Below the pieces are notes generated by a model. It worked only from the letters and a program-made list of their open reading frames with translations. It was not told where the DNA came from and searched no databases. This document shows positions 1-53,042 of a stretch of 64,000 bases of DNA, in pieces. The translations under genes were made by a program, and so were the position numbers. Source of the DNA: Akkermansia sp. Its GTDB lineage: Bacteria > Verrucomicrobiota > Verrucomicrobiia > Verrucomicrobiales > Akkermansiaceae. How positions within the stretch are numbered: the first letter of the stretch is position 1; every line of letters begins with the position of its first letter. The DNA lies in NCBI GenBank assembly GCA_022787425.1, contig JALFWB010000006.1, positions 23,528-87,527 of the forward strand, given 5' to 3'.

Positions 1-129
1 TTCTGTTGGCTGTCTACCGGTTATTCCGGCTTTACCTGTGTGCAGGTGCTGATGTGGGTCAGCCTCGTGCTCACCCTCTGGAGCGGAGCCAACTACTGCA
101 TCCGCAATCGGCATCTCTTTAACGATTAG
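1..129 (+). CDS. C-terminal fragment of a CDP-alcohol phosphatidyltransferase-like membrane protein (5' end outside window)
   Basis: Frame +1 is open from base 1 to TAG at 127-129. The translation FCWLSTGYSGFTCVQVLMWVSLVLTLWSGANYCIRNRHLFND is a hydrophobic terminal helix with an LWSG.NY tail reminiscent of PgsA-type enzymes. Only 42 codons are visible. Confidence 0.35.
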   Translation, partial: FCWLSTGYSGFTCVQVLMWVSLVLTLWSGANYCIRNRHLFND

Positions 130-3221: not shown

Positions 3222-3232
3222 ACTCACTCGTG

Positions 3233-3261
3233 AGTATAGCGCACTTCGCCCCGCTTGGCAA
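3233..3261 (-). promoter_or_regulatory. sigma70-type promoter of the UGPase gene: TTGCCA-17-TATACT, ATG 11 nt downstream
   Basis: Read on the minus strand: -35 at 3261-3256, -10 at 3238-3233, ATG at 3221. Confidence 0.6.
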
Positions 3262-3303
3262 CTCAAAAAATGCCGCAGCGGGCCATTTTCCGCAAAGCAA
3301 GAA

Positions 3304-5849: not shown

Positions 5850-7934
5850 TTAGGCGAAGAGGGAGGCTAGTTGGTAGATGAGGACGGCGGCGAGGAAGCC
5901 GATGAGGTTGAGGAAGAGGAATTGGAGGATGGTGAAGCGCCAGCTGCCTGTTTCCTTGCGTACAACGGCGACAGTACCGAGGCAGGGGAGGGCGAGCAGG
6001 GCAAAGGTCATGATGCCGAGGGCCTGCGGAATGTTGTAGTGGGAACGGATGGCTTGGCGTTTGATGCCCTCCTCGTACTCTTGCTTCTGCGCGGGCGTCA
6101 TCCCTGCTTCTGCGGTGGGGGAGGGCTCCGCTTTGAAGAGGATGCAGAGTTGGGTCACCAGCAGCTCCTTGGCCGAGAAGGCTCCGATCATGGCGGAATT
6201 AGCCTGCCAATCCATGCCGGCGTAGCGAGAGAGTGGCTCGAACACGCGCCCGACGCGGGCTGAGTAGCAGGCCGGGTGTGCGACCTCGGTCTCCCCCTGT
6301 TCGTTATATTGCAAGGGGAACGTGTTGAACACCCAGAGGAGGATGCTGCCGAAGAGGATGAATGTGGCTGCCTTCTTCAGATAACCGCTCGCCTTGTCCC
6401 ACACGCTGAGCAGGTAACTGCGCCAGCGCGGAAGCCGGTAAGAGGGGAGCTCCATGATAAACAGCTCATCCTCGCCGCGAAAGATCGTACTCTTGAGTAG
6501 GCGTGCAACGAGCACGGCCGTGAGAACCCCCAGAAGGTACAGTCCCCACAGGGTCACCGTGCGCCACGCAGGCGGAACAAGTGCCTGAATGATCAGTGTG
6601 AAGACCACCAGACGCGCCGAGCAATTCATGAGCGGCAGAACAAAAATGGTTGCCAAACGATCCCTCCGGCTCTCGATGCTGCGTGTTGCCAGCACTGCCG
6701 GCACATTGCAACTGAAACCGAGCAGCATCGGGATGAAACTCTTGCCGTGCAGCCCCATCTTGTGCATGAACCGGTCCATGAGAAAGGCCGCCCGCGCCAT
6801 GTAGCCCGTTGCCTCCAACAGAGACAGGCAGGCAAAGAGAATTACGATGGTCGGCACAAAGCTGACTACCCCGCCTGCACCGCCGATTACCCCGCGCGTG
6901 ATGAGAGATTGCAGGAGCGGATGCCCCGCCAACAGCGGGCCAATCAGCCCGGAAAGCCAATCGAAGCCCGCCTGCACCGCCTCCACCATGGGGTTGCCTA
7001 GGGTGAATGAGATGTAGAAGATCAGGAACATGATGCCCACAAAAAACAGCATGCCGAAATAGCGGTGTGTCAGCAGGCGGTCCAGAGCAAGCGTCATCAT
7101 CCTCGCATCCGGGCCGGAGGATCGTCCGTTCAGCACTTCTCCCACCAAGCCGTGAATGACGCCGTATCGTTTATCTGTCAGTAACTCGGCGGGTGTTGTG
7201 CCGAACTCCCGCTCGAGCGTATCGCGGCAATCGTTCACAATTTGCAGGAAACGCTGCCCCTTCTCTCCGTGATGGGTAAAATGCGCGATCATCTTACTGT
7301 TTCCCTCCAGCAGGCGGGATGCGATGTAAGATACCGGCTCATCGTGCGGGGGAAATCCCTCCGCCTCATAAGCATGCGTCAGCAGGTGGAAAATGCGGTC
7401 TACAGCCTCGCCGTACTCCGGGCGGCGGATAGTTCCCGTCTTCAGCTCGCCGTAACAAGTGGCACCGATCACCGAACGCAATCTGCGTATACCCTGTCCG
7501 TGGAAAGCATCCGTCCGCACCACCATGACCCCCGTGAGCTCTTCCAAACGCCGGGTATTGATGGTAAGGCCTGCATGCAGAGCCACATCCGACATATTGA
7601 GCACGAGGAGCACCTGCCACCCGAAATGCCAGAGCTGCAGGGTGAGGTAGAGCTGAACATCGAGGTTCGTGCTGTCGACAACGCTGATCACGAGCTTGGG
7701 CTGATGCCGCGTAAGGCAGTGCATGGTGAGCGCCTCCTCCGGTGAATTCTCACCGAGCCGGTAGACCCCGGGAAGGTCGATGAGGTCCACATCGCCCCGG
7801 TCGGTGTGCAGCACCTCATGTACCTCCTCCACTGTCATGCCTACAGCGCGGTTCGTGTTCGTCAGGCAGTTGAAAAGGGCTGTTTTGCCGCTGTGCGGCG
7901 TGCCTAACAGAATAGCTTGGGGAAGTTCACTCAT
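5850..7934 (-). CDS. feoB: ferrous iron transporter FeoB
   Basis: G-domain motifs GTPHSGKT (G1), DLPG (G3) and NMSD (G4), followed by a polytopic membrane domain. Start set at ATG 7934 (MSELPQAILLG). The 108-codon upstream extension in the track overlaps feoA in another frame. Confidence 0.9.
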   Translation of the reverse strand: MSELPQAILLGTPHSGKTALFNCLTNTNRAVGMTVEEVHEVLHTDRGDVDLIDLPGVYRLGENSPEEALTMHCLTRHQPKLVISVVDSTNLDVQLYLTLQLWHFGWQVLLVLNMSDVALHAGLTINTRRLEELTGVMVVRTDAFHGQGIRRLRSVIGATCYGELKTGTIRRPEYGEAVDRIFHLLTHAYEAEGFPPHDEPVSYIASRLLEGNSKMIAHFTHHGEKGQRFLQIVNDCRDTLEREFGTTPAELLTDKRYGVIHGLVGEVLNGRSSGPDARMMTLALDRLLTHRYFGMLFFVGIMFLIFYISFTLGNPMVEAVQAGFDWLSGLIGPLLAGHPLLQSLITRGVIGGAGGVVSFVPTIVILFACLSLLEATGYMARAAFLMDRFMHKMGLHGKSFIPMLLGFSCNVPAVLATRSIESRRDRLATIFVLPLMNCSARLVVFTLIIQALVPPAWRTVTLWGLYLLGVLTAVLVARLLKSTIFRGEDELFIMELPSYRLPRWRSYLLSVWDKASGYLKKAATFILFGSILLWVFNTFPLQYNEQGETEVAHPACYSARVGRVFEPLSRYAGMDWQANSAMIGAFSAKELLVTQLCILFKAEPSPTAEAGMTPAQKQEYEEGIKRQAIRSHYNIPQALGIMTFALLALPCLGTVAVVRKETGSWRFTILQFLFLNLIGFLAAVLIYQLASLFA

Positions 7935-18761: not shown

Positions 18762-20394
18762 GGCGCGGCGAGCGGATGCCGATGGCATCGAAGGGGTGAT
18801 TATCGAGCATAAGGGGGAACCAGCCGGAGACGTCGCGGTGCTTCAGGTAGGTACGGCGGCTGTGGTACAGGGGAATGACAGGCTGCGCCTCAGTCATCAC
18901 GGATTCGGCGCGGCGAAGGTGCTGCAGGCGCTCAACCGGGTCGGCACAGGCTGCGGCGGCGGAGAGGGCCGCATCGCAGTCCGCATCTCCCCATGCGGTG
19001 CAGTTGTTGCCGCCCCCTGTGCGCCACAGCTCCACAAAGGTGGCAGGATCCGGGTAATCTCCGCTCCAGTTGGAGGCCGATATATCATATTGCCCGCTGC
19101 GTTGCGCTGCCTTGTAGGCTGTCCATTCGTTCGCGCGGATATCAACGTTGATGCCGAGATTCTGCTTCCACATGGCCTGCACGCACTCGGCCAGAATGCG
19201 CTGCACATCGCGGGAGGTCGTCATGAGCTCCAGCACCGGGAAGCCGCGTCCGTCGGGGAAACCGGCCTCCGCCAGCAGGCGGCGCGCCTCGGCCAAGTGC
19301 TGCTCCTGCGTGCCGTGCGACCACCCCGGTACCACGGGTGCATACCCGGACACCGGCGGCGTGAAGGCAAAGGACGGCGACCCCACACCGCGCACCACAT
19401 CCCGTACCAAGGCCTCGCGGTCCAGTGCCAAGGAAAGAGCGCGCCGCACACGCGGGTCGTTCAGGGGCGGACGGGCGGTGTTCAGACGGTAAAACACGGT
19501 GCTGTAGTACGCATCGTTGCAGAACTCGGTCGGTGCCTTCTGCGCGGCCCAAGCGGCCATCTCCGGCGGCACGTTGTTGGTGATATGCAGCTTACCGTCG
19601 AAGAACATCCGTGTCTCCGTGTACCCATTCACGGTGGGCAGGAAGCGCACGCCTTTGTTGCGCACTTGAGCAGCACGGTGGTAGAGGGGATTCGCCCGCA
19701 CCTCCAAAAAGTTATTATACTCATGCTGAGCGAGCACATAGGCGCCGTTGCCTACCCAGTTTTCCGGTTTCGTCCACAGGCTGCGGCGGTCGAGCATCCC
19801 GCCCATGGCCTCGACATGATGCGCCGGCAGGGGACACCAGGTGAAGTGCAGAAGCAGAGGGAGGAGGTGCGGCATGGGGCCGCCCATCGTGAGCACCAAG
19901 GTGTGCGCATCCGGGGTCTGCACGCCTACGTCCTCCCAAGGGCATTCACCTTTGTTAAAACGCTCCGCATTCTTCAGCGGGTAAAGCATCTCCGCGTACT
20001 TGCCGCCGAAGCTCGGGTGCAGCATGCGGCGGAAGGCATAGGCGAAATCCTGCGCCGTCACGGGACGACCATCGCTCCAGCGGGCCTCGCACAGGCGGAA
20101 AGTCCAGACGGTGGCGTCTTCGTTCCGCTCCCAGCTCTCGGCCATGCCGGGGAGCACGCCGGTGTCGTCCTTGGGGTCGGGGCGCACCAGCCCCTCCAGC
20201 AGGGCGGTGATGATCTTTCCATCCGCCACAGCCGTCGCCTTGTGGGGGTCCAAGCTGACGGGTTCCTGTCCGTTGCCGACAATGAGGATGCCCTGCTCTG
20301 TGGCACGCTCCACGCTGCTGCGACTGTCCCCGCACCCCCCGACAACCAAGCCGAGGGCAAGGGAGAAGCACCACGCTGCCAACCTGCTCAACAT
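18754..20394 (-). CDS. peptide/nickel ABC transporter substrate-binding lipoprotein (family 5, OppA/DdpA type)
   Basis: Lipoprotein signal MLSRLAAWCFSLALGLVVGGC, with family-5 SBP length and pattern. ATG 20394 lies 7 nt after TACAAT of a TTGAGC-17-TACAAT promoter. Confidence 0.9.
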   Translation of the reverse strand: MLSRLAAWCFSLALGLVVGGCGDSRSSVERATEQGILIVGNGQEPVSLDPHKATAVADGKIITALLEGLVRPDPKDDTGVLPGMAESWERNEDATVWTFRLCEARWSDGRPVTAQDFAYAFRRMLHPSFGGKYAEMLYPLKNAERFNKGECPWEDVGVQTPDAHTLVLTMGGPMPHLLPLLLHFTWCPLPAHHVEAMGGMLDRRSLWTKPENWVGNGAYVLAQHEYNNFLEVRANPLYHRAAQVRNKGVRFLPTVNGYTETRMFFDGKLHITNNVPPEMAAWAAQKAPTEFCNDAYYSTVFYRLNTARPPLNDPRVRRALSLALDREALVRDVVRGVGSPSFAFTPPVSGYAPVVPGWSHGTQEQHLAEARRLLAEAGFPDGRGFPVLELMTTSRDVQRILAECVQAMWKQNLGINVDIRANEWTAYKAAQRSGQYDISASNWSGDYPDPATFVELWRTGGGNNCTAWGDADCDAALSAAAACADPVERLQHLRRAESVMTEAQPVIPLYHSRRTYLKHRDVSGWFPLMLDNHPFDAIGIRSPRHD

Positions 20395-24671: not shown

Positions 24672-25025
24672 GCGGCGGGTCTCCCTTCATCGGGAGTGAG
24701 TATAGCACATTTTGCTTACTCGGGAAAGGAAAAAGACACTCCGTCAGCTCCGGAGCCCTCAATCGAGCCCTAAGGTGTGTACCTTTCTCTGACACATCCA
24801 CCCGGACTCATTCCGGATTGCGTGCAAGGGAGGTTATCGAATATTCGAATAGGCTTGTCAATACTTTTTCGCAATTTCGGAGAGGAAACGAGCGTTCCGA
24901 GCTTTGCGAGGACCTGGGAGCGCAGAGGAAGCCACAACAGGGCCTACATATCTCCGGAGGAGCTCGAAATCATAGCTAGGGTGTCTAAGGGAGCTGCACT
25001 TTTAACGGGGATCCGGGAAAAAAAC

Positions 25026-25054
25026 TTGTCTTTTCCTCAACCATACGCTAGAAT
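25026..25054 (+). promoter_or_regulatory. promoter of acyltransferase 1: TTGTCT-17-TAGAAT, ATG 7 nt downstream
   Basis: -35 at 25026-25031, -10 at 25049-25054, ATG at 25062. Confidence 0.65.
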
Positions 25055-25061
25055 ATCGGCC

Positions 25062-26222
25062 ATGACGACACCTCAGCGCACCAAACGGATTGGTAGCATC
25101 GACGGCCTCAAGGGGCTGGCCGCTGTCTTTATTCTTGTGTTTCACTACCTGCTCGCCTTTGCACCGTACGGCCACATAGGCTTCGGCAGCGGGGTAGCAA
25201 AGCAAAATGCGGAAGCGGTGTACATGGCTTCCTTCCCCTACTCCATTTTGGTCAGCACGCCTTTTGCTCTCTATATTTTCTTCGCGCTCATCGCCTTCAT
25301 CCCCGCTCTGCGCTACATGAAGACGGGGGATGCCGGCTTCCTGTATAAACAAGCGACCGTTCGCTATGTACGCCTCATGCCGCCCACGTTGGTGGCCGCT
25401 CTGTTGGGCTACATCGGTTATGCCTGCTTCGCCGGTCAGCACACAGCCTTGGTGGAGGCCATGCGCCCCTTGACCGGAGGTGGCTGGTTAAATGCCTTGG
25501 TGTATTCGGACCTCAGCCTCGGGGATGCCCTGCAGGCCGGACTCTGGAAGTCCCTCTGCCTAGGAGATGCTCGCTATAACAGCCCGCTGTGGTGCATGAG
25601 CATCGTCCTCTTCGGTTCCTATGCGGTCTATGCCGTGTTGCTGACCTTCGGCAAACTGCAACGCCGTTGGATCATCTACCTCATCCTCGCCTTCGTCTGC
25701 GTTGCTGCGGGGGCTTCTCGCTACCTCTCCTTCTTGGCCGGTATTGCGGCGGCGGACTTCTCCCGCCAAGCGGAGCCCGGTAAGCACAGCGAGGCCTGTG
25801 CCCTGGCCTGCGTTGCCTTGGCCATCCTGATAGCCATCTTCCCGGCAGTCCTCCTCCCCTCCTTCCTGGATGCGTACACCATGCAGGGCATCGCCTGTTT
25901 CTTCTTCCTCTTCGGCATGGTACGCTCCGCCATTCTGGAGAAGATGCTGGGCCGTTCCCGCACGCTCAAGCACCTCGGCAAACTCTCCTTCGGCATCCTG
26001 CTGGTGCAATTCCCCGTCCTGCTCTACTTCTCCGCCTGGGTTTACACCTCCCTCGTCGGCTGCGACTGGAGCTACCCCGGTGCCGCTACCGTCTCCTTCC
26101 TCATCTCACTTCCCCTCGTCTACGTCCTCAGCCTCGCCTTCTACTATGCCGTAGAAGTCCCCTGCGGCAAACTCTGCAACCTCATCTACGCCCCCTTCGC
26201 TCCGGCAAAACAGCCCAGCTGA
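25062..26222 (+). CDS. acyltransferase family 3 (OafA/NolL-like) membrane protein
   Basis: MTTPQRTKRIGSIDGLKGLAAVFILVFHY N-terminus typical of acyltransferase_3, about 10 TM. ATG 25062 lies 7 nt after TAGAAT of a TTGTCT-17-TAGAAT promoter. The 95-codon upstream extension in the track is rejected. Confidence 0.85.
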   Translation: MTTPQRTKRIGSIDGLKGLAAVFILVFHYLLAFAPYGHIGFGSGVAKQNAEAVYMASFPYSILVSTPFALYIFFALIAFIPALRYMKTGDAGFLYKQATVRYVRLMPPTLVAALLGYIGYACFAGQHTALVEAMRPLTGGGWLNALVYSDLSLGDALQAGLWKSLCLGDARYNSPLWCMSIVLFGSYAVYAVLLTFGKLQRRWIIYLILAFVCVAAGASRYLSFLAGIAAADFSRQAEPGKHSEACALACVALAILIAIFPAVLLPSFLDAYTMQGIACFFFLFGMVRSAILEKMLGRSRTLKHLGKLSFGILLVQFPVLLYFSAWVYTSLVGCDWSYPGAATVSFLISLPLVYVLSLAFYYAVEVPCGKLCNLIYAPFAPAKQPS

Positions 26223-26252
26223 TTTCCCCGCCGGACTTATCCTAAACCCAAA

Positions 26253-26290
26253 ATAAGCCCTTCGCGCTCATCCCCGAAGGGCTTATTTTA
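26253..26290 (+). terminator. rho-independent terminator after acyltransferase 1 (usable in both directions)
   Basis: Perfect 12-bp stem ATAAGCCCTTCG (26253-26264) / CGAAGGGCTTAT (26275-26286), 10-nt loop, then TTTTA. An A-run on the left gives a T-rich tail on the other strand. Confidence 0.8.
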
Positions 26291-26305: not shown

Positions 26306-26473
26306 CTACAACATGCGCAATGCTGTAGTCAAGTGCAATTTCGTTTTCCTTTGTATCAACAAAGGATTTTTATTCTTGATACTCTTCTGAAATTCCCCGA
26401 CATGAAGAGTTATATTTCTCAAAGTCGTTGATTATCAACGTTCATAATAGGGGGTGCATTGCGCATGCTGTAT
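26306..26473. promoter_or_regulatory. candidate invertible promoter cassette (inverton) upstream of acyltransferase 2
   Basis: 18-nt inverted repeats at 26306-26323 and 26456-26473 (16/18 complementary) flank a 132-bp AT-rich segment. That segment carries TTGATA-18-TATAAC on the minus strand (-35 at 26438-26433, -10 at 26414-26409). Confidence 0.45.
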
Positions 26474-27565
26474 GCTTTGCGCATGGCAGGTGAATGCAGA
26501 GTAGGGGGCTTCAGCCGTCAGGGAACAGCGATGATCAAGGGTGTGGCAATTCTGACGATGCTCTTTCACCATTTCTTCGGTGCGTATCATGTGGATTCCG
26601 GTATTACGCAGGCGGTGTTTGCGAATCTGGATTTCTGTGCTTTGTCTGCCTGGGCATGGGAGGCTAAGGTTTGCGTGGCTCTTTTCGCATTTGTGACAGG
26701 GTATGGTTATTATGTGACGGCGGGAAGGGATACAGGGTGTGCATGGGGATCCGGTTTTCGTCGTCTGCGCAGATTCTATCCTCTTTTCATCGCTTTCTGT
26801 TTATTACATATTTTGCTTTGCTATTGTTGCCCCTTTCAGGATGCCTTGAATGACCAGCAAGTTCCGCATTATCTGCTGACAATGGTCGGTTTGCTGTCTG
26901 CCGCTCCGGATTACTGGTACATATGTGTGGTCATACTGGGTGCCCTATTATTTTACCCTGTTCTGTTGGCGGCACGGAGATGCTGCGGGTCTATCTATCT
27001 TGTTGCCTTTATCGGGCTCTCTTTGTTGAGCATTACGTGGATCAGAGACGAGGTGTTCGTACTGATACTGAGTTGTTTTACCGCACAAGCTGAGGAGGTT
27101 TACCGCTATGTCCTTTCGCGTTCTCTTTACCTCGTTTCATTGCCTTGGATGATTTATTTTCTGGTTGGTTGGGCTGTGGCTGCGGTGAGTCTTCGTCTGT
27201 GTGTTACATCCGTTCTTCTCCTGACGGTGTCTAGTGCCGTTCTCCTTGTCAATGTGCCTCAATTTCCGTTTTGGGTGGGTAGTTTTCCCTGCATCCTCCT
27301 GACTGTGTGGGTGTTGCAGCGGGTGGATGGTCATTGGGTGGGGTGGCTGGTGTTATTGGGAAAATACTCAGCGTGCATGTGGCTGAACCATCGGTTGATA
27401 TTCGGGTATTGGTTTGCGGATTTCTTTTACGGCTTGCCCACACCGCTGAATTATCTTTTGTTGGTCGGGGTTTCTTTGGGCGTTTCCGTGGTCGTTATGT
27501 GGGTGTGGGAGGAATGGGTGATGGGTGGACGAAAAAAGCGGCGGCATGATGATGCCGCCGCGTAA
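26465..27565 (+). CDS. acyltransferase family 3 membrane protein (lower-GC copy)
   Basis: AMIKGVAILTMLFHHFFG motif and a polytopic profile. Start ambiguous (TTG 26459, ATG 26465, ATG 26483 or ATG 26531). G+C is visibly lower than in the flanks. Confidence 0.75.
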   Translation: MLYALRMAGECRVGGFSRQGTAMIKGVAILTMLFHHFFGAYHVDSGITQAVFANLDFCALSAWAWEAKVCVALFAFVTGYGYYVTAGRDTGCAWGSGFRRLRRFYPLFIAFCLLHILLCYCCPFQDALNDQQVPHYLLTMVGLLSAAPDYWYICVVILGALLFYPVLLAARRCCGSIYLVAFIGLSLLSITWIRDEVFVLILSCFTAQAEEVYRYVLSRSLYLVSLPWMIYFLVGWAVAAVSLRLCVTSVLLLTVSSAVLLVNVPQFPFWVGSFPCILLTVWVLQRVDGHWVGWLVLLGKYSACMWLNHRLIFGYWFADFFYGLPTPLNYLLLVGVSLGVSVVVMWVWEEWVMGGRKKRRHDDAAA

Positions 27566-43678: not shown

Positions 43679-43788
43679 GCTTGTTCCATTCCCCGAGCGG
43701 GCAGCCTCTGTTGCAGTGGAGCACCCCCCCGGACTCGGAACCAATAAGACTTCCTGCCGCCGTGGTGATAGGGGGCGTCTTTTGGGGT

Positions 43789-43981
43789 GACGCGGAATTT
43801 TCGGAATTTTTGGAAGCTTAAATTTCATGCTCTTCTTTGGCAAGACTTCAAAGTAAATTCATCCCATAGGTAGCTATAGAAATTTATCAAAAAATCAAGG
43901 AAACTACCATCCCGGCGGCATGCAGCTTGTACCGAGTCAAGCATTCCAATCAGTTTCCGGGAATTCCAAAAATTCCGCGTC
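43789..43981. repeat. imperfect 27-nt inverted repeats enclosing a 139-bp AT-rich segment (MITE-like, structured RNA or degenerate inverton)
   Basis: GACGCGGAATTTTCGGAATTTTTGGAA (43789-43815) versus the reverse complement of 43955-43981, GACGCGGAATTTTTGGAATTCCCGGAA: 23/27 identical. Confidence 0.6.
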
Positions 43982-44020
43982 CTCCCCAACACACCCTCTC
44001 TATTACCCAGGCGGCAGGAC

Positions 44021-44084: not shown

Positions 44085-47000
44085 TCAGAAGTTGACGCGG
44101 TAGCCAACGGAGCCGTTCACGCCCACCTCGTCGGCATTGAAGTCGGCGTTCACATCGAAGAAGATGGAGCCTGCATCCTGCGAGATCGGGATGGTGAGGG
44201 TGGCTCCGAGTTCTGCGCCGATGACGCCCTTCTCGTTGCTGCGGGTGGTGACCGTGGCGGTCGGCAGGACGGCAAGGGCGGTGTTCAGCTTGTTGTAGCG
44301 GTCGCCGAAGTCCAGTTTGAGCAGGGCGCGGGCCTCGAAGATGGAGGCGCGGTTGTACTCGTTCTCACCCACGACGCTCTGCAGTCGACCACCGAGGCCG
44401 AGGGAGAATTGGGTGAGGGATGCCGAGTCCGTGGTCAGGCGGGTGTCCGCCGTGCCGCCTTCCGTTGCGCTGTCCAGCGTGGTGTGGCTGAAGCTCATGT
44501 TGAACAAGGGCTGCACACAGGTGGTCGCCTCATCGTTCAGGGCGAAGGTGCGGGCGACCTCATACAGGAAGCCGAACATCATGCCGTTCGTCTTGTAGGT
44601 CGTTTTACCCGTGACACCGGGGATGGTGCGCTCCAGGTCGACATCCGCGCGGCCGAGGGTTCCCACGAAGGTATTGACCCAAGAACCGGTCGAGACGCGG
44701 GCGAAGAGAGAGACGTACTGGGTGTCCAGGTCGCCTGTCAGGGTGTCCGCAGCCTTGCCGGTGTAGTCACCGAAGAGGGCACTGACGGCCACGCCGAGGG
44801 TGAGGTTCGGGTTCACGTCGACATCAACGCCGACCGTGCCGCCCCAGGAGGAGACTTGGTAACCGGCATCCGTGCCGCTCTCGCTGAGCTGGCGGTAGTT
44901 GCCGTCACCGCTGATCCAGCCGTTGACGTAGGGCATGTCCTCGTTCACCACGCACTCATTCACGCCCATGGTGGTCGTGCGGTTGCGGATGGAGCGGAGT
45001 TGACGCTGCACATCGTCAGCCAAGGCCAGCCCCACAGCGGACAGCGAGCTACCCGCCAGCGCCGCACCCAGCTTGTCCATCGCGTCCTTGTTACCGGTAG
45101 CAATGTGGTTATCCAGCATAGTGAGTACCTGAGCCAGCTCGCCGTTGGGTGCCGTTGACCGCGGGTCAAGGTGGAACATCGCCTTACCCGCCAGCGCGAG
45201 ACCCGCCGTGCCGTTCGGCGTCTGACCACCATGCGAGACGTAGTATCCCGTGTTGGCGTCAGCGATGATATCAACGGAGCCCTCCACCGCGCGGAAGTTG
45301 GTGAAGTACTTGGTCATCCAAGTGCATTCGCTCATGTCCACCGTCACGTTGCTCACCGAGCAGCCGTCCCGATCGTTCAGCACAAAGAGCAGGATGTCCT
45401 TCTCCTTGCCGCCCGCATTGAAGTCCAGCCCCGTGTTCTCCACCTCATGCACCTTCAACGTCACGTCCTTCAGGCTCAGGGATGAACCCGTGGTAACAGT
45501 CGGTTTATCATCGTTAGCCTTCAGCTTCTCATTTACCTCCGTGGCGGAAACGATGAAGTCCAGAACGCCATCCTTCATGGTGGAAGCATTGCCCAGCGTC
45601 ACCGTGGTCGCCTTACCATCATCTGTTGTCTTGTTGTTCAGCTTCACCGATGCCCCCGTGGTAGCAATGCCATCGAGCTTGTTGGAATCAGCATAGGCAC
45701 TGTTCAAACCAGTCAACTCCACTGTGCCGAGTGTGCCGACCACCGTCAGCTTCTCATCCGCCGCCAACTCCTGGACAGCACCATCTCTCACAGTGCCAAT
45801 GGAGGTCGCGCTGTTGTAGTTCCCGGTGAAAGTGCCGCTCTCACGTACCAACAACGTACCTTGCACACCCTTTGAGGCAACATTTTTGTCCAGCTTTTCC
45901 AGCTCAATGGTGCCTGTATTCTTGGCAATAATGTCAGCACTGATCTCGCCCGAAACCACCAGCTTGCCATCGCCGCCGACTATACCATCGCCGGAGATAG
46001 ATCCCACTTTCACGGTCGAGCCGCTGCCGATGGTCAGGGTGCCATTGTTGGTCATCTTCTCACTTTCCAAGGAGCCACCTTCTCCTTCTACTGTCAGAGA
46101 GGTGCCGGTGTGGATGGAAGTAAGCTCATTCACCGTCAGATTGTTTTGCACAATCAATTTGCCGTGGGCAATACTGAGCGTCCCCGTTGTCACGTCTTTT
46201 CCGCTGAGGGTGTAGGCATCCCGATCTGCACCCGGGGTGAAGTCTACCGCAATTCCCTTCACGGTTTGATCACTATTCACGATCACCTTACTTGAACCGT
46301 CACCGGCAAAAGAGACATAGCTATCCTTCGTCAGCTGAGCATCTGCGTTTGCGCCGAAGCCAGTCGATGATGTCCATCCATTTGTCTCGTCACCATGCCA
46401 CGTCAACCCAAGCGTCACTTTAGAAAGAGTGACCGAGGTGTCGTTCATTGCAATATAGTAACGCACTTCCGTACCATCTGCAGCGTTCTGCGTAAAGGAT
46501 TCCTTTTCATTTACGGTTGCCTTGTCATACCCCACGATGCCGCCCTCTGCATTCAGCAGTTTGAATTCCGCCCCATCCGGGAGGTCCTGCAGGAAATCGA
46601 GGTTCCCCGATGAGGTCGTAAAATTCAGGGTTCCGCTACCGCTTGCTTCACCCCCAACAGTAATAGCCGTCTTAGTGGCATCCAAAGCTGCGCCATCCAA
46701 CGTGATTGTCGAAGCTCCTGTCAGATCGCCCGTCAAGCTCATGGTCTCGCCCAAGGTCAGCGCGCCCAAAAGCTTCATGGATCCTCCGTTGACCGAGGCA
46801 TTCAACTTCGCACCGTCTGCCAAGGTCAGCAACGAGGTCGACTCACTCGCCGTGTAGCTGCCCGTCCAGTCTTTAATGTCTCCGCCGAGGGAAACATTCC
46901 CCTTGGAATTATTGACGATCGAACCGGTTCCGGACAGCTTACCATTGAGAGCAAGAGTACCGGCGGTTTCCGGCCCGTCAGTGAGCGTCAGCGCAGCAAC

Positions 47001-50000
47001 GTCAGGAGTGCTTTCGTCCGTAGATTGTATGTCCACCAAGACCAAATCAGCAGTCACTTTCGGGCTTGTGCCGTCCGCTCCATCGTATGCGTAGCCGCTC
47101 AAACCGGAGATCTTGATGGTGCTGGTCTGCTGAGTCGTACCGTCCACCGTTCCGGTAGATGCCAGATGATTCAGCTCCGTGATGGAGAACCAGTCGTCAC
47201 CATTCCCTCCCAACTTGGTGTTCGTAACCTCCACCGTACCCGTCCAACCGGGATCGCTGGGGGTAGTATCCGTACCCGCTGTCGGATTGACAACCTGTGT
47301 TGCGCCGGCTTCCAGCCCCATCGCATTGTCCATGACATAGGTTCCCTTGCCGGTCAACTTCAGAGTTGGAGTGAAGTCTCTGGTGGAACCATCCGTTCCT
47401 TCGACTTCCTTCTGCAGGATGGTAGCCTTATTCAGTCGGATTTCCGTTCCATCCGGGTTCGTACCATCGAACTTGATGGTAGCGTCGTTCAATACAATGA
47501 TGCCACTCGTCGCATTCTCATTCAGATTGTTCTTCATCACCAGCGTCAGAGGCTCTGTCTCTAAAGCCGCTTTATCAAGAACAAGCCCGGTTGTGGCGGT
47601 ATTTGCAGCGGAATTTGCCCTTGAACCGCTCTGATACACAACGCAATCCTTCTTATTATCATTATCGGAGTCGGTCTCATTGTACATGATGTAGAAGAGA
47701 TCCTTCTGAGCGTCCGTTCCTGTAATCTTAACGTTGGAGCCATCCGAGGCGATGAAGGAACCCGATTCGGTAGCAGTGCTGGTGAAGGTCTGATTTCCGA
47801 CAGTTACACTGGTAATACCACTTGCAGAAGCCCCGGCACTTCCGGCAACGATAAGGAACGAGCCGTCAACATATCCATTGCCGCTGTCCGGACGTTGAGC
47901 ATCCACATAATCAATATCCTTCTCTGTCAATACATCCTTTGAGGTGAAACTCAGGGAGCCACCGGTGGCGAGAGTAAACGTCCCGGCGTTCTCGATGGTT
48001 GCCCCGAGTGTCACATCGCCGGTTACTGTAAGATTGGCTCCTGTAAGGACGGAGAGTTTACCCTCTCCCACAACAGACTTCCCTATATGATCCCCCGTGG
48101 TGGCATCGCCCAGAGTCTTGGTGCCTGCTATCTCAAGCGTTGTATCTTTCGCCAGAGAAATAGCACCTGTACCGAGTATTGCCTCGTCCTTTAATTGTAC
48201 CGTGCCTCCGGTCACAGTAAGGTCTTTCGTCCAAGTCGAAGTCGTGTTCGTGAAGATCACCCTGCCTTCGCCGGCTTTCACGATATTATTGGTACCATGC
48301 CGGTTATCTACGATCTTCGATGAAACCAACAATTCACCGTCCTTCTCCACAGTCAGATTTAAAACCTCTCTTGCCTGAAGTTCTTCGGCACTAATCTTGT
48401 TATTGGTTCCGGAGACGTTGACAGTTGCACCGAAGGGCATAATTTTAGTTCCGGTCAAGACACTGTTACCGCCCATGTCGACGGACGTGCACCAAGTGAA
48501 GGGATTGCTCCCATCCGTATCATTGAAATCCAATGTCGCAACTTTATCAGTACTCTCGCCGCCCAGAATGATCTTGTTCGGACTCTTGGCGCTCGACCAT
48601 GCGAGCATATCGTGTCCCGTCAGTCTCAGGGTTCCGCCTGTAACCTTAACCTCAGACCCGACACTGATGCAACTTTGGTCACTCAAGGCACCGCAATTGA
48701 TCTCGAGAGTGCCCCCGGAGACAAGCAAGCCTGTTCCGGAGAATGTATTGGCCGCGCCGATAAGCTTAACTGTACCGGCTTCTACGATTAATTTGCCACC
48801 TTGCACCGTGGGCTGACCGTTTGAGTTCTGCAGTATCAGATTGCCACCATCCAGCGTGAATTGATTCTCTATCACCAGGGGGGAGCAGAAGGTCAGTGTG
48901 CCATCTATTGTCAGTGCTGCCGTTGAGCCGGAGGCCTGAAGAGAACCGACAAGTAATTGTCCCGCACCTTCCTTAATCGTCGCGCCCCCACCGATGGACA
49001 GCGAGTGCGCATTGACGACATGGGCGTTGAGATCTAGGGTGCCACCATTCAGAGAGAGAGCAGCAACACTCACATCTTCCTGCGCCGTCACAGTACCGCC
49101 GGTAATTGTAACAGAATCGCCATCTCGGTATGAAGTGGCGACACCATTAACATCTTTGAATAATGTATTAGTCTCTGTGCCGTTGTTTTTCCAAGCAACA
49201 TCGGAGTCTGTGAACAACTCCATGGTAGCGTAGCCCTGCTTCTTGTAGTTAACCAAGACGGAGGTGCCTCCGTCCGAAAGCGTAGCATCCGCAAGGATAT
49301 GACCATCCTGGTCGAAAATGATGCAATCCGAAGAAGCGGTGGAGTAAACATTGCCCCCCTCAGCCATGGTGAGAATTGTCCGCGATACGTTCACTTCACC
49401 ATACGTTCCTCTGTTGGACAGACCGCTGATCTCCTCATCCTTTGTGTTGACAACGATTTCTAAATGGAAGGTTCCTCCATTATTCTTGAGCCTGAAATTC
49501 TTTACGGTGCTGCCCAGATTGATTAGACCGTTCTCCCCGATATGCCAATTTTGGAAAGTATTGCCATCGTTAAGGTCAATGGTATCTCCTCTGCCGACAA
49601 AATTCAGCAGGCCGTCCACATACACGTTTGCAGTGTTGTTTGACTCCGTGTTCTTCAAACTGGTGCCATAACTAACATTCAGGATGGACCCGGTCCCGAC
49701 ATGAATTGCCCCGGCCCACTCACTGAGGTCGCAGGAAACTGCGCTGTGTCCCGTCACCTTAATACCTCCGTAGTCAGAGGTGTTTTTAGTGTTCTTGGCC
49801 GAAACAACACCGACTGAGTCAAAGACGAGCAGGGGGCCTCCTTTTCCTCCACGGTCGGGATTTGCGTCTTCGCCTGCTGCATTCTTAAATCCACCACTGG
49901 CCGTTGAGTAGGTATACACAGGGCCTCCGAACATGGGTTGATTCAGCCATGGGTCATAGCCAATGGTTTGCATGAAATCGAGACTTGTCCACGAAGCGGC

Positions 50001-50588
50001 GTCTGCCCCGATCCTTGCACCCCCGATCAGGGTTGCGTGATTTTTGTTGCCATTAGTCCAATACCAAGAAGTTTCCGAGGACAATGCTAGATTGCTAATC
50101 CCGGTGTCGACGACAGAAGTGCGATAGGAAGAGGATGATGTTAGATCGAGGAGGTATACCTGATGGTTGACCGCATCGTATGCCAAGCGGTAGGTGTTAC
50201 CCACAACAACCGGAATGGCTGCGCTCTTTGCCGTGCCTCCTTCCGCGATGCATATGGTCTTGTTTCCATTGTTGATGTAAGCAGAAAGTCCGATGGCGGT
50301 GCTTTCGTCATGACTCCCCGAGTAGCTAGCTCCGTTATTGGCGATAGCATTGAATTTCAAATCCAGATACCAGCTCTGGGCGGATGTTGTGTTACCTGCA
50401 AAAGCATTGAATGTGATGCGGGTGTTGGTTTGCGTGACATCAGAGCTGGTAACACTGGTATTGCTTCCTGTACCGAAAACAAGCCCCGATATAGCTTCTG
50501 TCGTCAGCGTCTCTGCATAGGTGGGAGACGCAGCCAGTATGCATGCGAGAAGGGCGGTGCGAAGGCCCTTAGGTAAGTGTAATTTCAT
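44085..50588 (-). CDS. giant autotransporter (type Va) outer-membrane protein with beta-helical passenger
   Basis: Signal peptide MKLHLPKGLRTALLACILAASPTYA. About 1850 aa of G/T/N/S-rich beta-strand repeats (GGTL.L.G, autotransporter-associated repeat style). C-terminal about 280 aa has alternating beta-barrel pattern ending ...GSVGYRVNF with terminal Phe. Confidence 0.9.
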   Translation of the reverse strand: MKLHLPKGLRTALLACILAASPTYAETLTTEAISGLVFGTGSNTSVTSSDVTQTNTRITFNAFAGNTTSAQSWYLDLKFNAIANNGASYSGSHDESTAIGLSAYINNGNKTICIAEGGTAKSAAIPVVVGNTYRLAYDAVNHQVYLLDLTSSSSYRTSVVDTGISNLALSSETSWYWTNGNKNHATLIGGARIGADAASWTSLDFMQTIGYDPWLNQPMFGGPVYTYSTASGGFKNAAGEDANPDRGGKGGPLLVFDSVGVVSAKNTKNTSDYGGIKVTGHSAVSCDLSEWAGAIHVGTGSILNVSYGTSLKNTESNNTANVYVDGLLNFVGRGDTIDLNDGNTFQNWHIGENGLINLGSTVKNFRLKNNGGTFHLEIVVNTKDEEISGLSNRGTYGEVNVSRTILTMAEGGNVYSTASSDCIIFDQDGHILADATLSDGGTSVLVNYKKQGYATMELFTDSDVAWKNNGTETNTLFKDVNGVATSYRDGDSVTITGGTVTAQEDVSVAALSLNGGTLDLNAHVVNAHSLSIGGGATIKEGAGQLLVGSLQASGSTAALTIDGTLTFCSPLVIENQFTLDGGNLILQNSNGQPTVQGGKLIVEAGTVKLIGAANTFSGTGLLVSGGTLEINCGALSDQSCISVGSEVKVTGGTLRLTGHDMLAWSSAKSPNKIILGGESTDKVATLDFNDTDGSNPFTWCTSVDMGGNSVLTGTKIMPFGATVNVSGTNNKISAEELQAREVLNLTVEKDGELLVSSKIVDNRHGTNNIVKAGEGRVIFTNTTSTWTKDLTVTGGTVQLKDEAILGTGAISLAKDTTLEIAGTKTLGDATTGDHIGKSVVGEGKLSVLTGANLTVTGDVTLGATIENAGTFTLATGGSLSFTSKDVLTEKDIDYVDAQRPDSGNGYVDGSFLIVAGSAGASASGITSVTVGNQTFTSTATESGSFIASDGSNVKITGTDAQKDLFYIMYNETDSDNDNKKDCVVYQSGSRANSAANTATTGLVLDKAALETEPLTLVMKNNLNENATSGIIVLNDATIKFDGTNPDGTEIRLNKATILQKEVEGTDGSTRDFTPTLKLTGKGTYVMDNAMGLEAGATQVVNPTAGTDTTPSDPGWTGTVEVTNTKLGGNGDDWFSITELNHLASTGTVDGTTQQTSTIKISGLSGYAYDGADGTSPKVTADLVLVDIQSTDESTPDVAALTLTDGPETAGTLALNGKLSGTGSIVNNSKGNVSLGGDIKDWTGSYTASESTSLLTLADGAKLNASVNGGSMKLLGALTLGETMSLTGDLTGASTITLDGAALDATKTAITVGGEASGSGTLNFTTSSGNLDFLQDLPDGAEFKLLNAEGGIVGYDKATVNEKESFTQNAADGTEVRYYIAMNDTSVTLSKVTLGLTWHGDETNGWTSSTGFGANADAQLTKDSYVSFAGDGSSKVIVNSDQTVKGIAVDFTPGADRDAYTLSGKDVTTGTLSIAHGKLIVQNNLTVNELTSIHTGTSLTVEGEGGSLESEKMTNNGTLTIGSGSTVKVGSISGDGIVGGDGKLVVSGEISADIIAKNTGTIELEKLDKNVASKGVQGTLLVRESGTFTGNYNSATSIGTVRDGAVQELAADEKLTVVGTLGTVELTGLNSAYADSNKLDGIATTGASVKLNNKTTDDGKATTVTLGNASTMKDGVLDFIVSATEVNEKLKANDDKPTVTTGSSLSLKDVTLKVHEVENTGLDFNAGGKEKDILLFVLNDRDGCSVSNVTVDMSECTWMTKYFTNFRAVEGSVDIIADANTGYYVSHGGQTPNGTAGLALAGKAMFHLDPRSTAPNGELAQVLTMLDNHIATGNKDAMDKLGAALAGSSLSAVGLALADDVQRQLRSIRNRTTTMGVNECVVNEDMPYVNGWISGDGNYRQLSESGTDAGYQVSSWGGTVGVDVDVNPNLTLGVAVSALFGDYTGKAADTLTGDLDTQYVSLFARVSTGSWVNTFVGTLGRADVDLERTIPGVTGKTTYKTNGMMFGFLYEVARTFALNDEATTCVQPLFNMSFSHTTLDSATEGGTADTRLTTDSASLTQFSLGLGGRLQSVVGENEYNRASIFEARALLKLDFGDRYNKLNTALAVLPTATVTTRSNEKGVIGAELGATLTIPISQDAGSIFFDVNADFNADEVGVNGSVGYRVNF

Positions 50589-50717
50589 GTCCTTGATGTG
50601 AGAAAGTTTGGAGAGATTCGACGCAAGGGGTGTGGGACGCATCGCCACATCGGCTCTTTCTCTCTCTCTCACACCGAGGTGAGCGATACGCCTACATCCC
50701 CTGCGAACGCTCTAATG

Positions 50718-50887
50718 CTACATCATTTCCAAAGCACACCCTATGTCTCATGTTGATACTGAACGACTTATGCAGTATAAACGCTGTGAGCAGCCCCGCA
50801 CAAGCTATGTCCTTAATGTGGAAAATCTATGGCATTGATGGGAAAATTCCCATTTTTCTGCTTGACTCATCATTGGAAATGCTGTAG
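50718..50887. promoter_or_regulatory. candidate invertible promoter cassette (inverton) upstream of the autotransporter gene
   Basis: 15-nt inverted repeats at 50718-50732 and 50873-50887 (14/15 complementary) flank 140 bp. That segment carries TTGATA(50753-50758)-17-TATAAA(50776-50781) on the + strand, facing away from the autotransporter. Confidence 0.5.
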
Positions 50888-50901
50888 GCTTTTCACCGGG
50901 G

Positions 50902-50936
50902 AAAAAAGCCGCGCTCCCTCGGAAGGGGGCGCGGCT
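50902..50936 (-). terminator. rho-independent terminator of the acetyl-CoA synthetase gene
   Basis: Stem AGCCGCGC (50907-50914) / GCGCGGCT (50929-50936) with additional inner C:G pairs, followed on the minus strand by a T-run (complement of A 50902-50907). Confidence 0.7.
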
Positions 50937-50960: not shown

Positions 50961-53042
50961 TTACTTGAGCAGCATCTTGAAGTCCACCACCACGGCGCGG
51001 TCGGCGGTGACGAGCACCGGGTTGCCGTCGATGGCCGTAATCTCCGGCACCTCGAGCACGAGCTGCTGCACCTTGCGGAGGGTGTCCGCCAAGGGGCCGA
51101 CGGCCTTGGGAGCCTCGCCGCGCACGCCGTTGAGGATCTTGCCGACCTTGGTCTCCTTGATCATGGCATCGAAGTCATCCGTGGGCAGGATGCGCATCGT
51201 GGTGTCGCGCATCACCTCCGTGTAGATACCGCCGGTACCGAAGACCATGACGCGGCCGAAGTTCTTGTCGCTGTTCACACCGATGATGGTCTCCGTAGCC
51301 TTGGTGATCATCTCCTGGATGAGCACGGAAGCCCCCTTGAGGTTGAACTTGGTGATGGAAGCCCACAGGCCGTCCCAAGCGGTGTTGAAGGAAGCCTCGT
51401 CCGTGATGTTGAGGTAGATACCCTTCATCTCCGTCTTGTGCAGAGCATCCGGGGCGGAGAGCTTGAGCACGACGGCGTTCGGGAACACGGTCTTGCAGAA
51501 CTCCAGGGCCTGCGCCTTGTCCGTAAAGTTGCCACTCTTCGGGAAGTCGATGCCGTAGTGAGCCATGAGCGCGTTGACCGTGGTCTGGGGCAGGGAAGCG
51601 AGACCGGCGGCCTTGGCCTCTGCCACCTGAGCCTTGAGGTCGGCCGGCAGGGTACCGAGCTCCACGGAAGCGAGCTTCTTGCCCTTGTAAGCCATCTGGC
51701 CCTTCAGCAGACCGAGCAGGCGGACGACATCGTTCGGGTACTCATAGACGAGGATGTGGTTGTCTGCCAAGATCTTGCGACCCTCCGCCACGCGGGCACC
51801 GCCGACGAAGCCGCAGAAGATGTTGACATTCTTGAACTGCGGAGCAATCTTGGCGATGGCCTGAGCCGTGCCCGTCGGGTCCGTCACGCGCTGCGGGGTG
51901 AGCAGCACGAGGATGTTCTTGTACTCACCGCTCTCGCAGAGCACGCGCAGGGCGTTCTCATAGCGGTCGGCCAAGGCATCGCCCACCACGTCGATGGGGT
52001 TGCCGAGCGCGGCCTCCGGGGTGAGGACGGCCTTGAGCTTCTCGATGGTGGCATCGGACGGGCGAGCCATGTCCAGCCCCGCCTCCTCGCAGAGGTCGGA
52101 GGTGAGCACGCCGACACCGCCGGCGTTGGTGAGCACGGCCAGCTGGCCGTCGAACTCGTGGTGATTGGCGTACTGCAGGATCTCCAGCAGGCCGAAGAGC
52201 TCGCGGTCATTGTAAGCCTGCACGGCACCGGCACCCTGCAGAGCCATCTCCAGCACGCGGTAGTTCGGCGCGAGCGAACCCGTGTGGGAGAGAGAAGCGG
52301 CCTGGGCCTTGCTGCTCTTGCCGGGCTCCATGATCACGCAGGGCTTGGTGTTGGAGACCTCCTTGAGCACGCGGAGGAACTCCTTGCCGTTCTTGAGGGA
52401 CTCCAGGTAGAACACAAAGGCATTCGTGTTCGGGTCATCCTTCAGCGCGTCCAGCAGCTTGTCCTCGCCCATCACGGCCTTGTTGCCGATGGAGATGAAG
52501 TGAGAGAAACCGATGCCCTTGCCGGCGGCCCAGTCCATGATGGCGGAGCAGTAAGCACCGGACTGGGAGATGAAGGCCACATTGCCCTTGGGCGGGTTGC
52601 CGTCACCGAAAGAGGCATTCAGGTTATTGAAGGTGGAGATGTGGCCGAGGCAGTTCGGACCCAGCAGGTTGATGCCGTTGTCCAGGCACTTCTGCGCGAT
52701 GCGCTTCTCGAGATCCTTCTGACCGACCTCAGCGAAACCGGCGGTGATGATGGAGATATTCTTCGTGCCGTTGGCAATGCACTGGTCCACGGTACCCTCC
52801 GTAAAGCGGGCCGGCACCAGAATGACCACCAGATCCATGGGCTCCGGCAGCTTATCCACGCTGGCGTAGCAGGGGTAGCCGTTCAGCTCTTTGCCGTCCA
52901 GCTTGGGGTTGACGCCGTAGAGCTTGCCGGGGAACTTGGCACCGATGATATTGTTGAATACAACGGCACCCAGCTTGGCGGGATTGTCGGAGACACCGAC
53001 GACCGCCACACTCTTCGGATTAAAGAATGATTCGAGAGACAT
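50961..53042 (-). CDS. ADP-forming acetyl-CoA synthetase / acetate--CoA ligase family protein
   Basis: N-terminal CoA-binding fold FFNPKSVAVVGVSDNPAKLG, a succinyl-CoA-synthetase-like flavodoxin domain and a C-terminal ATP-grasp. Start set at ATG 53042 (MSLESFF). Confidence 0.9.
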   Translation of the reverse strand: MSLESFFNPKSVAVVGVSDNPAKLGAVVFNNIIGAKFPGKLYGVNPKLDGKELNGYPCYASVDKLPEPMDLVVILVPARFTEGTVDQCIANGTKNISIITAGFAEVGQKDLEKRIAQKCLDNGINLLGPNCLGHISTFNNLNASFGDGNPPKGNVAFISQSGAYCSAIMDWAAGKGIGFSHFISIGNKAVMGEDKLLDALKDDPNTNAFVFYLESLKNGKEFLRVLKEVSNTKPCVIMEPGKSSKAQAASLSHTGSLAPNYRVLEMALQGAGAVQAYNDRELFGLLEILQYANHHEFDGQLAVLTNAGGVGVLTSDLCEEAGLDMARPSDATIEKLKAVLTPEAALGNPIDVVGDALADRYENALRVLCESGEYKNILVLLTPQRVTDPTGTAQAIAKIAPQFKNVNIFCGFVGGARVAEGRKILADNHILVYEYPNDVVRLLGLLKGQMAYKGKKLASVELGTLPADLKAQVAEAKAAGLASLPQTTVNALMAHYGIDFPKSGNFTDKAQALEFCKTVFPNAVVLKLSAPDALHKTEMKGIYLNITDEASFNTAWDGLWASITKFNLKGASVLIQEMITKATETIIGVNSDKNFGRVMVFGTGGIYTEVMRDTTMRILPTDDFDAMIKETKVGKILNGVRGEAPKAVGPLADTLRKVQQLVLEVPEITAIDGNPVLVTADRAVVVDFKMLLK

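Follow-up and report, generated by a model that had tools for sequence, protein, structure and literature searches.

Cassette C1, a 168-bp element (50719-50886) with inverted repeats at both ends and located 5' of the gene for a giant autotransporter, is probably an invertible promoter switch belonging to a cassette family of Akkermansia, and its sequenced orientation would leave the autotransporter gene OFF. The element lies in a window of 64,000 nucleotides (the whole stretch of DNA that was analysed), which has a G+C content of about 60% and comes from an Akkermansia species, in agreement with the protein names of homologues.

Genomic context of the cassette

The autotransporter gene (44085-50588, minus strand) is an intact ORF of 2167 aa, with a C-terminal autotransporter beta-domain (PF03797, E = 5.6e-27 in a Pfam scan). 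Along the minus strand, the acs gene, encoding an ADP-forming acetyl-CoA synthetase (50961-53042), is followed by its terminator hairpin (50907-50936), C1, about 130 nt and the autotransporter gene; acs and the autotransporter gene are both on the minus strand and co-directional, not convergent. The autotransporter leader includes a GA-rich purine tract (50654-50670, minus strand; CT on the plus strand). Neither the Rfam scan nor the tRNA scan of the window gave a match.

The 15-nt repeats reported in the earlier note, CTACATCATTTCCAA (50718-50732) and TTGGAAATGCTGTAG (50873-50887), were confirmed in both position and sequence. They are complementary at 14 of 15 positions and 140 nt apart, with the left arm starting 130 nt from the autotransporter ATG (50588). 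When aligned with the family described below, the arms of C1 are 17 nt long and separated by 134 bp: the gene-side arm, TACATCATTTCCAAAGC (50719-50735, plus strand), has two mismatches with the family consensus TACAGCATTnnnAATGC, and the acs-side arm, TACAGCATTTCCAATGA (50870-50886, minus-strand reading), has one. The central 9 bp, CATTTCCAA, are the same in both arms.

Ten other strains of this species are homologous to the window (95-97% over 12 kb) as far as 50903, a position 16 nt outside the arm of C1; past this point, the ten strains instead carry a 34-aa gene, a HAD hydrolase and an OmpA gene. The closest same-species homologue of the autotransporter (L018) is found at a different genomic locus. 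Because of this break in synteny and the other location of L018, the module formed by C1 and the autotransporter gene appears, at the level of sequence, to move between genomic positions.

Similarity between the two cassettes of the window

Taken alone, the C1 repeat is within chance: pairs of 15-mers matching at 14 or more of 15 positions and 50-300 nt apart were found at 3 loci in the 64-kb window, against a mean of 1.65 in 20 dinucleotide shuffles. The significance of the repeat comes instead from family membership. A second cassette, which the earlier note had placed at about 26306-26473, proved to be real. This cassette, C2 (26307-26472, minus strand), has arms at 26307-26323 and 26456-26472, which are 16/17 complementary and 132 nt apart, with a non-consensus centre (TGCGCAA) and one outer mismatch. 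Its surroundings have the same layout as those of C1, on the plus strand: an Acyl_transf_3 gene (24777-26222, plus strand), a terminator (26250-26289), the cassette and a second acyltransferase gene (26531-27565, plus strand), whose product matches Acyl_transf_3 weakly (29.4 bits versus a cutoff of 31).

Local alignment of C1 with C2 gave z = 8.6 against shuffles; for the interiors alone, z was 4.8 and the score was reached by 1 of 2000 shuffles. C1 (plus strand) aligns with C2 (minus strand), with the motifs TTGATA, AACGACTT and CTTGACT at matching offsets, as previously reported, and an identical block, GTTGATAnTnAACGACTT, stands at an equal offset in the two interiors. In the 64-kb window, TACAGCATTNNNAATGC at no more than two mismatches matched the four arms of C1 and C2 only, and the same was true of the consensus TACAGCATTnnnAATGC. 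Loose-pattern matches at 47680 and 62190 were discarded as sites, with at least three mismatches to the family consensus and numbers within chance expectation. The alignment score and the shared arm consensus support the view that C1 and C2 represent one system, as sequence comparison can indicate it; the earlier note had made this view depend on alignment statistics and further genomic copies, and both were obtained, the latter as the loci described next.

A family of cassettes in Akkermansia

A total of 14 non-redundant family loci was identified in Akkermansia genomes and metagenomes, with the arm consensus TACAGCATTnnnAATGC, interiors of 130-200 bp, and autotransporter, PEP-CTERM and glycan genes as neighbours. 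C1 has the features of this family, namely two inverted arms matching TACAGCATTnnnAATGC at 130-200 bp from each other, and a TTGACn hexamer 2-3 nt inside one arm and 17-18 nt before the terminal TA of that arm. Between loci, the interiors are only about 45-60% identical, and specific motifs are invariant.

A scan of the genome collection with the pattern TACANCATN{22,30}TTGATANNNAACGACTT returned four true matches in two Akkermansia genomes (L013, L014, L016 and L017), together with three chance matches in unrelated low-G+C DNA. Cassettes were also found upstream of the two closest autotransporter homologues, P0002 and P0004 (L018 and L019), in glycan loci of the same species (L003, L004 and L007), and between two autotransporter-like genes (L020). 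In the metagenomes, the family-level scan detected only three true members, all in a marmot co-assembly, the remaining matches being due to chance; these members (one in L026 and two in L029) are beside small PEP-CTERM genes. A GCATT-type scan of viral contigs gave no matches, and GCATT cassettes were not found in A. muciniphila-like contigs, at loci reached through PATR/autotransporter homologues and through the sdhB neighbour of L016.

The gene-side flanks of L013, L014, L016 and L017 have a common leader block, CAGTGGGAGGG...CCCGGACGCGGG, which precedes large proteins that are otherwise unannotated; one of these has a PEP-CTERM end. This block may be a shared 5' regulatory element.

Inversion between fixed flanks

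Ten loci of other strains, retrieved through an FeS-assembly gene located 2 kb from C2, were compared with this cassette. In L044 and L037, both flanks are shared with the window (71-79 of 80 positions identical), and the interior matches that of C2 only when reverse-complemented (130-131 of 132 positions; 71 of 132 when read without reversal); at C2, L036 does not differ from the window. In L037, the outer mismatch in the left arm (TACAA) is still joined to the left flank, which locates the crossover inside the arm. Moreover, L014 and L017 are orthologous loci of two species; their flanks align only after reverse complementation (88/102 and 83/101), and their interiors align on the same strand (131/143). 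Both orientations are found between the same flanks at C2 and at L014/L017: members of the family invert between fixed flanks, which supports the inverton reading proposed at the outset. In the C2 region, L038 and L045 are contigs that start within the cassette, and the contigs L039-L041 start some 40 nt past it; these breaks (L038-L045) are suggestive of the assembly of a segment present in both orientations.

Such same-locus inversions with identical flanks, and an arm mismatch kept on the flank, make it extremely improbable that no recombination switch exists and that the cassettes are fixed regulatory or terminator elements, or miniature transposable elements inserted either way round. That chance can account for one 14/15 repeat so spaced in 64 kb, and that C1 and its autotransporter gene lie at a synteny breakpoint with respect to ten other strains, would fit such an explanation. 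However, neither target-site duplications (the flanks being GCTCTAATGC/GGCTTTTCAC and CTGTTTTGAC/TGCTTTGCGC) nor near-identical copies were found, as would be expected of miniature inverted-repeat transposable elements, and the divergence of interiors around invariant motifs is the reverse of what recent transposition would produce.

For C1, the other orientation was seen at the homologous autotransporter loci L018 and L019, with different outer flanks. The homologues P0002 (66% identity; same species as L003) and P0004 have a family cassette upstream at the same distance as C1, and in both L018 and L019 the CTTGAC end adjoins the autotransporter gene, which is the opposite of the window. The corresponding hexamers, TTGACT-17-TATTCT in L018 and TTGACA-17-TATTCT in L019, both read toward the autotransporter ATG, and the leaders share GCAGGGG and the GA tract, which varies in length, with the window (tract at about 3950-3975 in L018 and about 3935-3957 in L019). 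The reverse placement of the cassette in these homologues agrees with the earlier proposal that the outward promoter currently points away from the autotransporter gene.

No sequence combining the flanks of C1 with an inverted interior (in-silico expectation of the junction: ...GCTCTAATGCTACAKCATTTCCAATGATGAGTCAAGCAG...) was found at protein-homologue loci or by the metagenome scan, and a metagenome scan for the inner junction of C1, CTTGACTCATCATTGGAAATG, gave no matches. Exact-protein look-ups of the autotransporter, the C2 acyltransferase and the 346-aa neighbour returned no records. The autotransporter allele associated with C1 is a singleton in the protein collection, and for this reason the lack of an inverted C1 is uninformative.

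The orientation of C2 is OFF, since its TTGACT (26332-26327, minus strand) faces the upstream terminator. Judged from their sequences, both cassettes of the window are OFF.

The proposed switching promoter

The sequence TTGAC was present in 14 of the 14 non-redundant cassettes, with a spacer to the terminal TA of 17 nt in 12 of them and 18 nt in the other 2. The TTGACn hexamer stands 2-3 nt inside the arm and is preceded by a T-rich tract. In C1, this -35-like hexamer is TTGACT (50862-50867, plus strand), 17 nt before the terminal TA of the arm, and reads toward the acs terminator. Because TTGACn is always 17-18 nt before the terminal TA, the hexamer at the -10 position is made of this TA and four bases of the flank.

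On flanks leading to gene starts, the -10-position hexamer was TATTCT (L018, L019), TATCCT (L014, and the alternative orientation of L017), TATCTT (alternative orientation of L016), TACACT (L003), TATACT and TACACT (L004/L007), TATGCT (L026, L029 twice, and C2 in its ON state, 26471-26476) or TAGCAT (alternative orientation of C1). On flanks leading into gene 3' ends, it was mostly TAGGCn or TAGTCn; L013 is an exception, with a poor gene-side hexamer, TAGGCT. From this pattern we infer a split promoter, the strength of which would be set by the flank. At present, the outward promoter of C1 meets TAGGCT on the OFF side (50885-50890, plus strand), which keeps T1, A2 and T6; after inversion, the would-be -10 on the ON side would be TAGCAT (50715-50720, minus strand), with a predicted start near 50708, about 120 nt before the ATG.

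According to the proposed mechanism, a site-specific recombinase encoded elsewhere would pair the two arms and invert the interior of about 134 bp. This interior would carry the upstream half of a sigma-70-type promoter only, that is, the T-rich tract and TTGACn, and the -10 would be built from the last TA of the arm and four flanking bases, which on the gene side of C1 give TAGCAT. A flip would then create TTGACT-17-TAGCAT and turn the autotransporter gene ON, with a leader of about 120 nt. In the present orientation, the promoter would fire weakly, if at all, into the acs terminator.

The earlier note had assigned the switching role to another pair of hexamers, TTGATA (50753-50758) and TATAAA (50776-50781), and gave the leader of the inverted form as about 230 nt. 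Both hexamers, the 17-nt spacer and AACGACTT are indeed present in C1, and 10 of the 12 bases in the hexamers fit the consensus; C2 and L013-L017 also have TTGATA and AACGACTT at the same offset. TATAAA lacks the T at position 6, and the promoter scan made no call on it. Within the family, no -10 is conserved at this place: the hexamer 17-18 nt after TTGATA is TATAAA or TATAAC in the two window cassettes only, both without T at position 6, ATTTTG or similar in L013-L017, and absent in L018 and L019. TTGATA is one half of a palindrome, GTTGA-tac-TCAAC (GTTGAtacTCAAC; GTTGAnnnTCAAC), which resembles a protein-binding site. The palindromic module of C1, GTTGATACTGAACGACTT (50752-50769, plus strand), starts 16 nt inside the gene-side arm. 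About half of the family has such a module; in 7 of 14 cassettes it is missing or another dyad takes its place, in contrast to the invariant TTGAC at the other end. The module is possibly a binding site for an accessory protein.

In addition, a hairpin followed by a T-tract (50837-50859, plus strand), directly 5' of TTGACT, stands between the TTGATA/TATAAA pair and the exit of the cassette. This structure could be an insulating terminator or a UP-like T-rich tract, and a T-rich tract is found at this position in most family members. Given these features, we consider it improbable that TTGATA-17-TATAAA is the switching promoter; the invariant TTGACn is preferred, and the expected leader is accordingly shorter than first proposed. 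Since both candidates read in the same direction, the earlier statement that the promoter faces away from the gene stands under either.

In L003, the cassette (20161-20325) abuts an epimerase gene, and only 8 nt separate the end of TTGACT-17-TACACT from the ATG; if these hexamers form the promoter, the ON-state transcript would be leaderless or nearly so. In L004 (20673-20838) and L007 (20671-20836), the cassette lies between divergent operons, with an ATP-grasp gene on one side and a glycosyltransferase 2 gene on the other, and both flanks have good -10-like hexamers, TATACT and TACACT. This cassette may toggle between two operons instead of switching ON and OFF.

Arm architecture and recombinase

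Each arm is a dyad, (TA)CAGCATT-nnn-AATGCTG, which can also be read as TACAGCA-TTnnnAA-TGCWG (7-7-5/7), with TACAGCA and TGCWG as half-sites. The symmetry axis falls on a single base, the 7-bp centre being odd, so that the site is always asymmetric. A site symmetric about a 2-bp crossover dinucleotide, as used by serine invertases of the Hin/Gin/Mpi type, is not what GCATT-nnn-AATGC offers. Because the axis falls on one base, a tyrosine-recombinase overlap appears to be a better fit for the arm than a serine-invertase crossover of 2 bp.

The central triplets found by locus were TCT, TCC, CCG, CCC, TTT, TTG, CTG, CCA and GCT, as well as a GCG variant. At three orthologous pairs, the triplet had changed in both arms together (GCG in C2 and GCT in L037; CCC in L004 and TCC in L007; TCT in L014 and CCT in L017), which is expected if the two arm centres must remain identical. 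The arm centres of L018 are not identical (CCC and TCG), and this cassette may, to judge by its arms, be locked ON.

The arms of C1 are the most degenerate in the family, and three of the four half-sites differ at otherwise conserved positions; C1 could for this reason be slow-switching or locked. One may go further and regard C1 as a decayed member that has lost inversion, with the autotransporter locked OFF or expressed only through a weak inward element, TTGTGC-18-TATACT (50803-50774). The deviations themselves (G5>T and T14>A in one arm, an inner G>T in the other) would agree with decay, as would the metagenome scan, in which no inverted C1 was seen, and L018, whose centres show that members can lose arm identity. 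The missing inverted form is of little weight for a singleton allele, however, and CATTTCCAA is still the same in both arms of C1; C2, which also has a non-consensus centre and an outer mismatch, occurs in both orientations. Decay therefore seems unlikely, and C1 is better regarded as a switch that can still invert.

Neither PF00589 nor PF00239 was detected in the window (Pfam scans of 43 ORFs, and gene tables for the rest), in the ORFs scanned beside L013, L014, L016, L017, L026 and L029, or in the gene tables of L001-L010, L018-L021, L030-L031 and L036-L050. As no such protein is encoded in the window or beside the cassettes, the recombinase must, on this sequence-based reasoning, act in trans; the earlier note had likewise placed it outside the window.

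Comparison with known inversion systems

Promoter invertons are already known in Akkermansia, and C1 and C2 add members to them. A. muciniphila ATCC BAA-835 is reported to have 32 invertons of one arm group ('inverton group 138'), enriched near PEP-CTERM genes and with no linked invertase (PMC11892184). One group-138 inverton with 17-nt arms (2092093-2092109/2092267-2092283), located beside two autotransporter-domain genes, drifts in orientation over mouse generations (PMC11892184). For the cps1 capsule inverton, both orientations were demonstrated by long reads, PCR and capsule phenotype in three Akkermansia species (PMC13343947). The latter report quotes the arm motif of Jiang et al. 2019 Science as CGGATT..AATCCG (PMC13343947).

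The cassettes described here resemble the published Akkermansia invertons in genus, short inverted repeats, a distance of about 130-160 bp between these, intergenic position and lack of an adjacent linked invertase. C1 likewise is intergenic, in the kind of position published for these invertons, by surface-protein genes (autotransporter-domain, PEP-CTERM) or polysaccharide genes. The arms are different: (TACA)GCATTnnnAATGC here versus the quoted CGGATT..AATCCG. The motif GGATT(n1-3)AATCC was absent from the window and from L001-L020 (about 280 kb of related loci), and a CGGATT-type scan gave four matches, none recognisably Akkermansia. The qPCR primers published for this cps1 inverton terminate in ...TTGACACCG(G), which indicates the same layout, with a TTGACA hexamer abutting the arm. 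Moreover, L030 contains a cassette (3105-3275) with CAGCGGATTGTCAATCCGCTG arms (CGGATTnnnAATCCG, CGGATT type), in which TTGACA stands one base away from the arm and which precedes the gene for a PATR-repeat surface protein; this CGGATT-type cassette has the architecture of the GCATT family. The GCATT type may be part of published group 138 or a sister class to it.

The polysaccharide promoter invertons of Bacteroides fragilis are driven in trans by the global serine invertase Mpi. They resemble the present family in consisting of many dispersed cassettes of similar size, with one arm motif, associated with surface glycans and proteins and served by a trans-acting invertase. They differ in phylum and arm sequence, and in that the Bacteroides promoter, of the TAnnTTTG type, is wholly inside the cassette; in addition, the odd centre of the Akkermansia site does not fit the 2-bp crossover of a serine invertase. 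The fimS element of E. coli is a single 314-bp element with the entire promoter inside and adjacent genes for the tyrosine recombinases FimB and FimE. Like C1, it is a promoter-bearing invertible element 5' of an adhesin operon, with short inverted repeats and internal sites for accessory proteins; tyrosine-recombinase chemistry is a further likeness, although only proposed for the Akkermansia cassettes. In contrast to fimS, the latter occupy many loci, have no adjacent recombinase and apparently obtain the -10 from the arm end and the flank.

It is conceivable, if doubtful for now, that GCATT cassettes constitute a second inverton specificity class of Akkermansia (versus CGGATT), with their own trans-acting recombinase, probably a tyrosine recombinase, and a split promoter, and with ON strength set by the flank, a toggle at divergent operons and arm pairing restricted by the triplet. 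If this were true, each flank would set its own ON strength, L004/L007 (TATACT versus TACACT) would be a toggle, and the locus-specific central triplet would limit recombination to cognate arms.

The surface of Akkermansia, a candidate next-generation probiotic, is the part of the bacterium that the host encounters. If the switch reading is true, a giant autotransporter and an O-acyltransferase would be phase-variable and silent in the sequenced state, and strain phenotypes predicted from gene content alone would be misleading. The ON or OFF state could be read in any assembly from the flank that the TTGAC end faces, and the family alignment yields a 21-bp site with which to seek the Akkermansia invertase. 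The general phenomenon has already been published, and the gain is incremental.

Other repeated structures

Some other repeats were observed near these loci. Just 3' of the autotransporter stop, an imperfect long inverted repeat (43752-44019) has arms at about 43752-43818 and 43952-44019, which are about 78% complementary, with cores GACGCGGAATTTT.GGAATT, and encloses an AT-rich segment of 133 bp; its arms are unlike those of the GCATT family. On the minus strand, TTGCCA-17-TAAGCT reads outward across the left arm. This repeat could be another switch or merely a structured spacer.

In L021 (A. muciniphila-like, 55% G+C), near-perfect inverted repeats of about 70 nt (about 5496-5567 and 5866-5959) surround about 300 bp between two divergent genes for large surface proteins. 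They could correspond to a different, long-armed invertible region or to the duplicated 5' regions of paralogues. Finally, L046 (3769-4092) and 23 similar A. muciniphila-like contigs break off some 320 nt downstream of sdhB, ahead of a large RHS-like gene, and the intergenic DNA of L047 and L049 diverges from a point about 320 nt past sdhB, which suggests another variable or repeated element 3' of sdhB in A. muciniphila-like assemblies.
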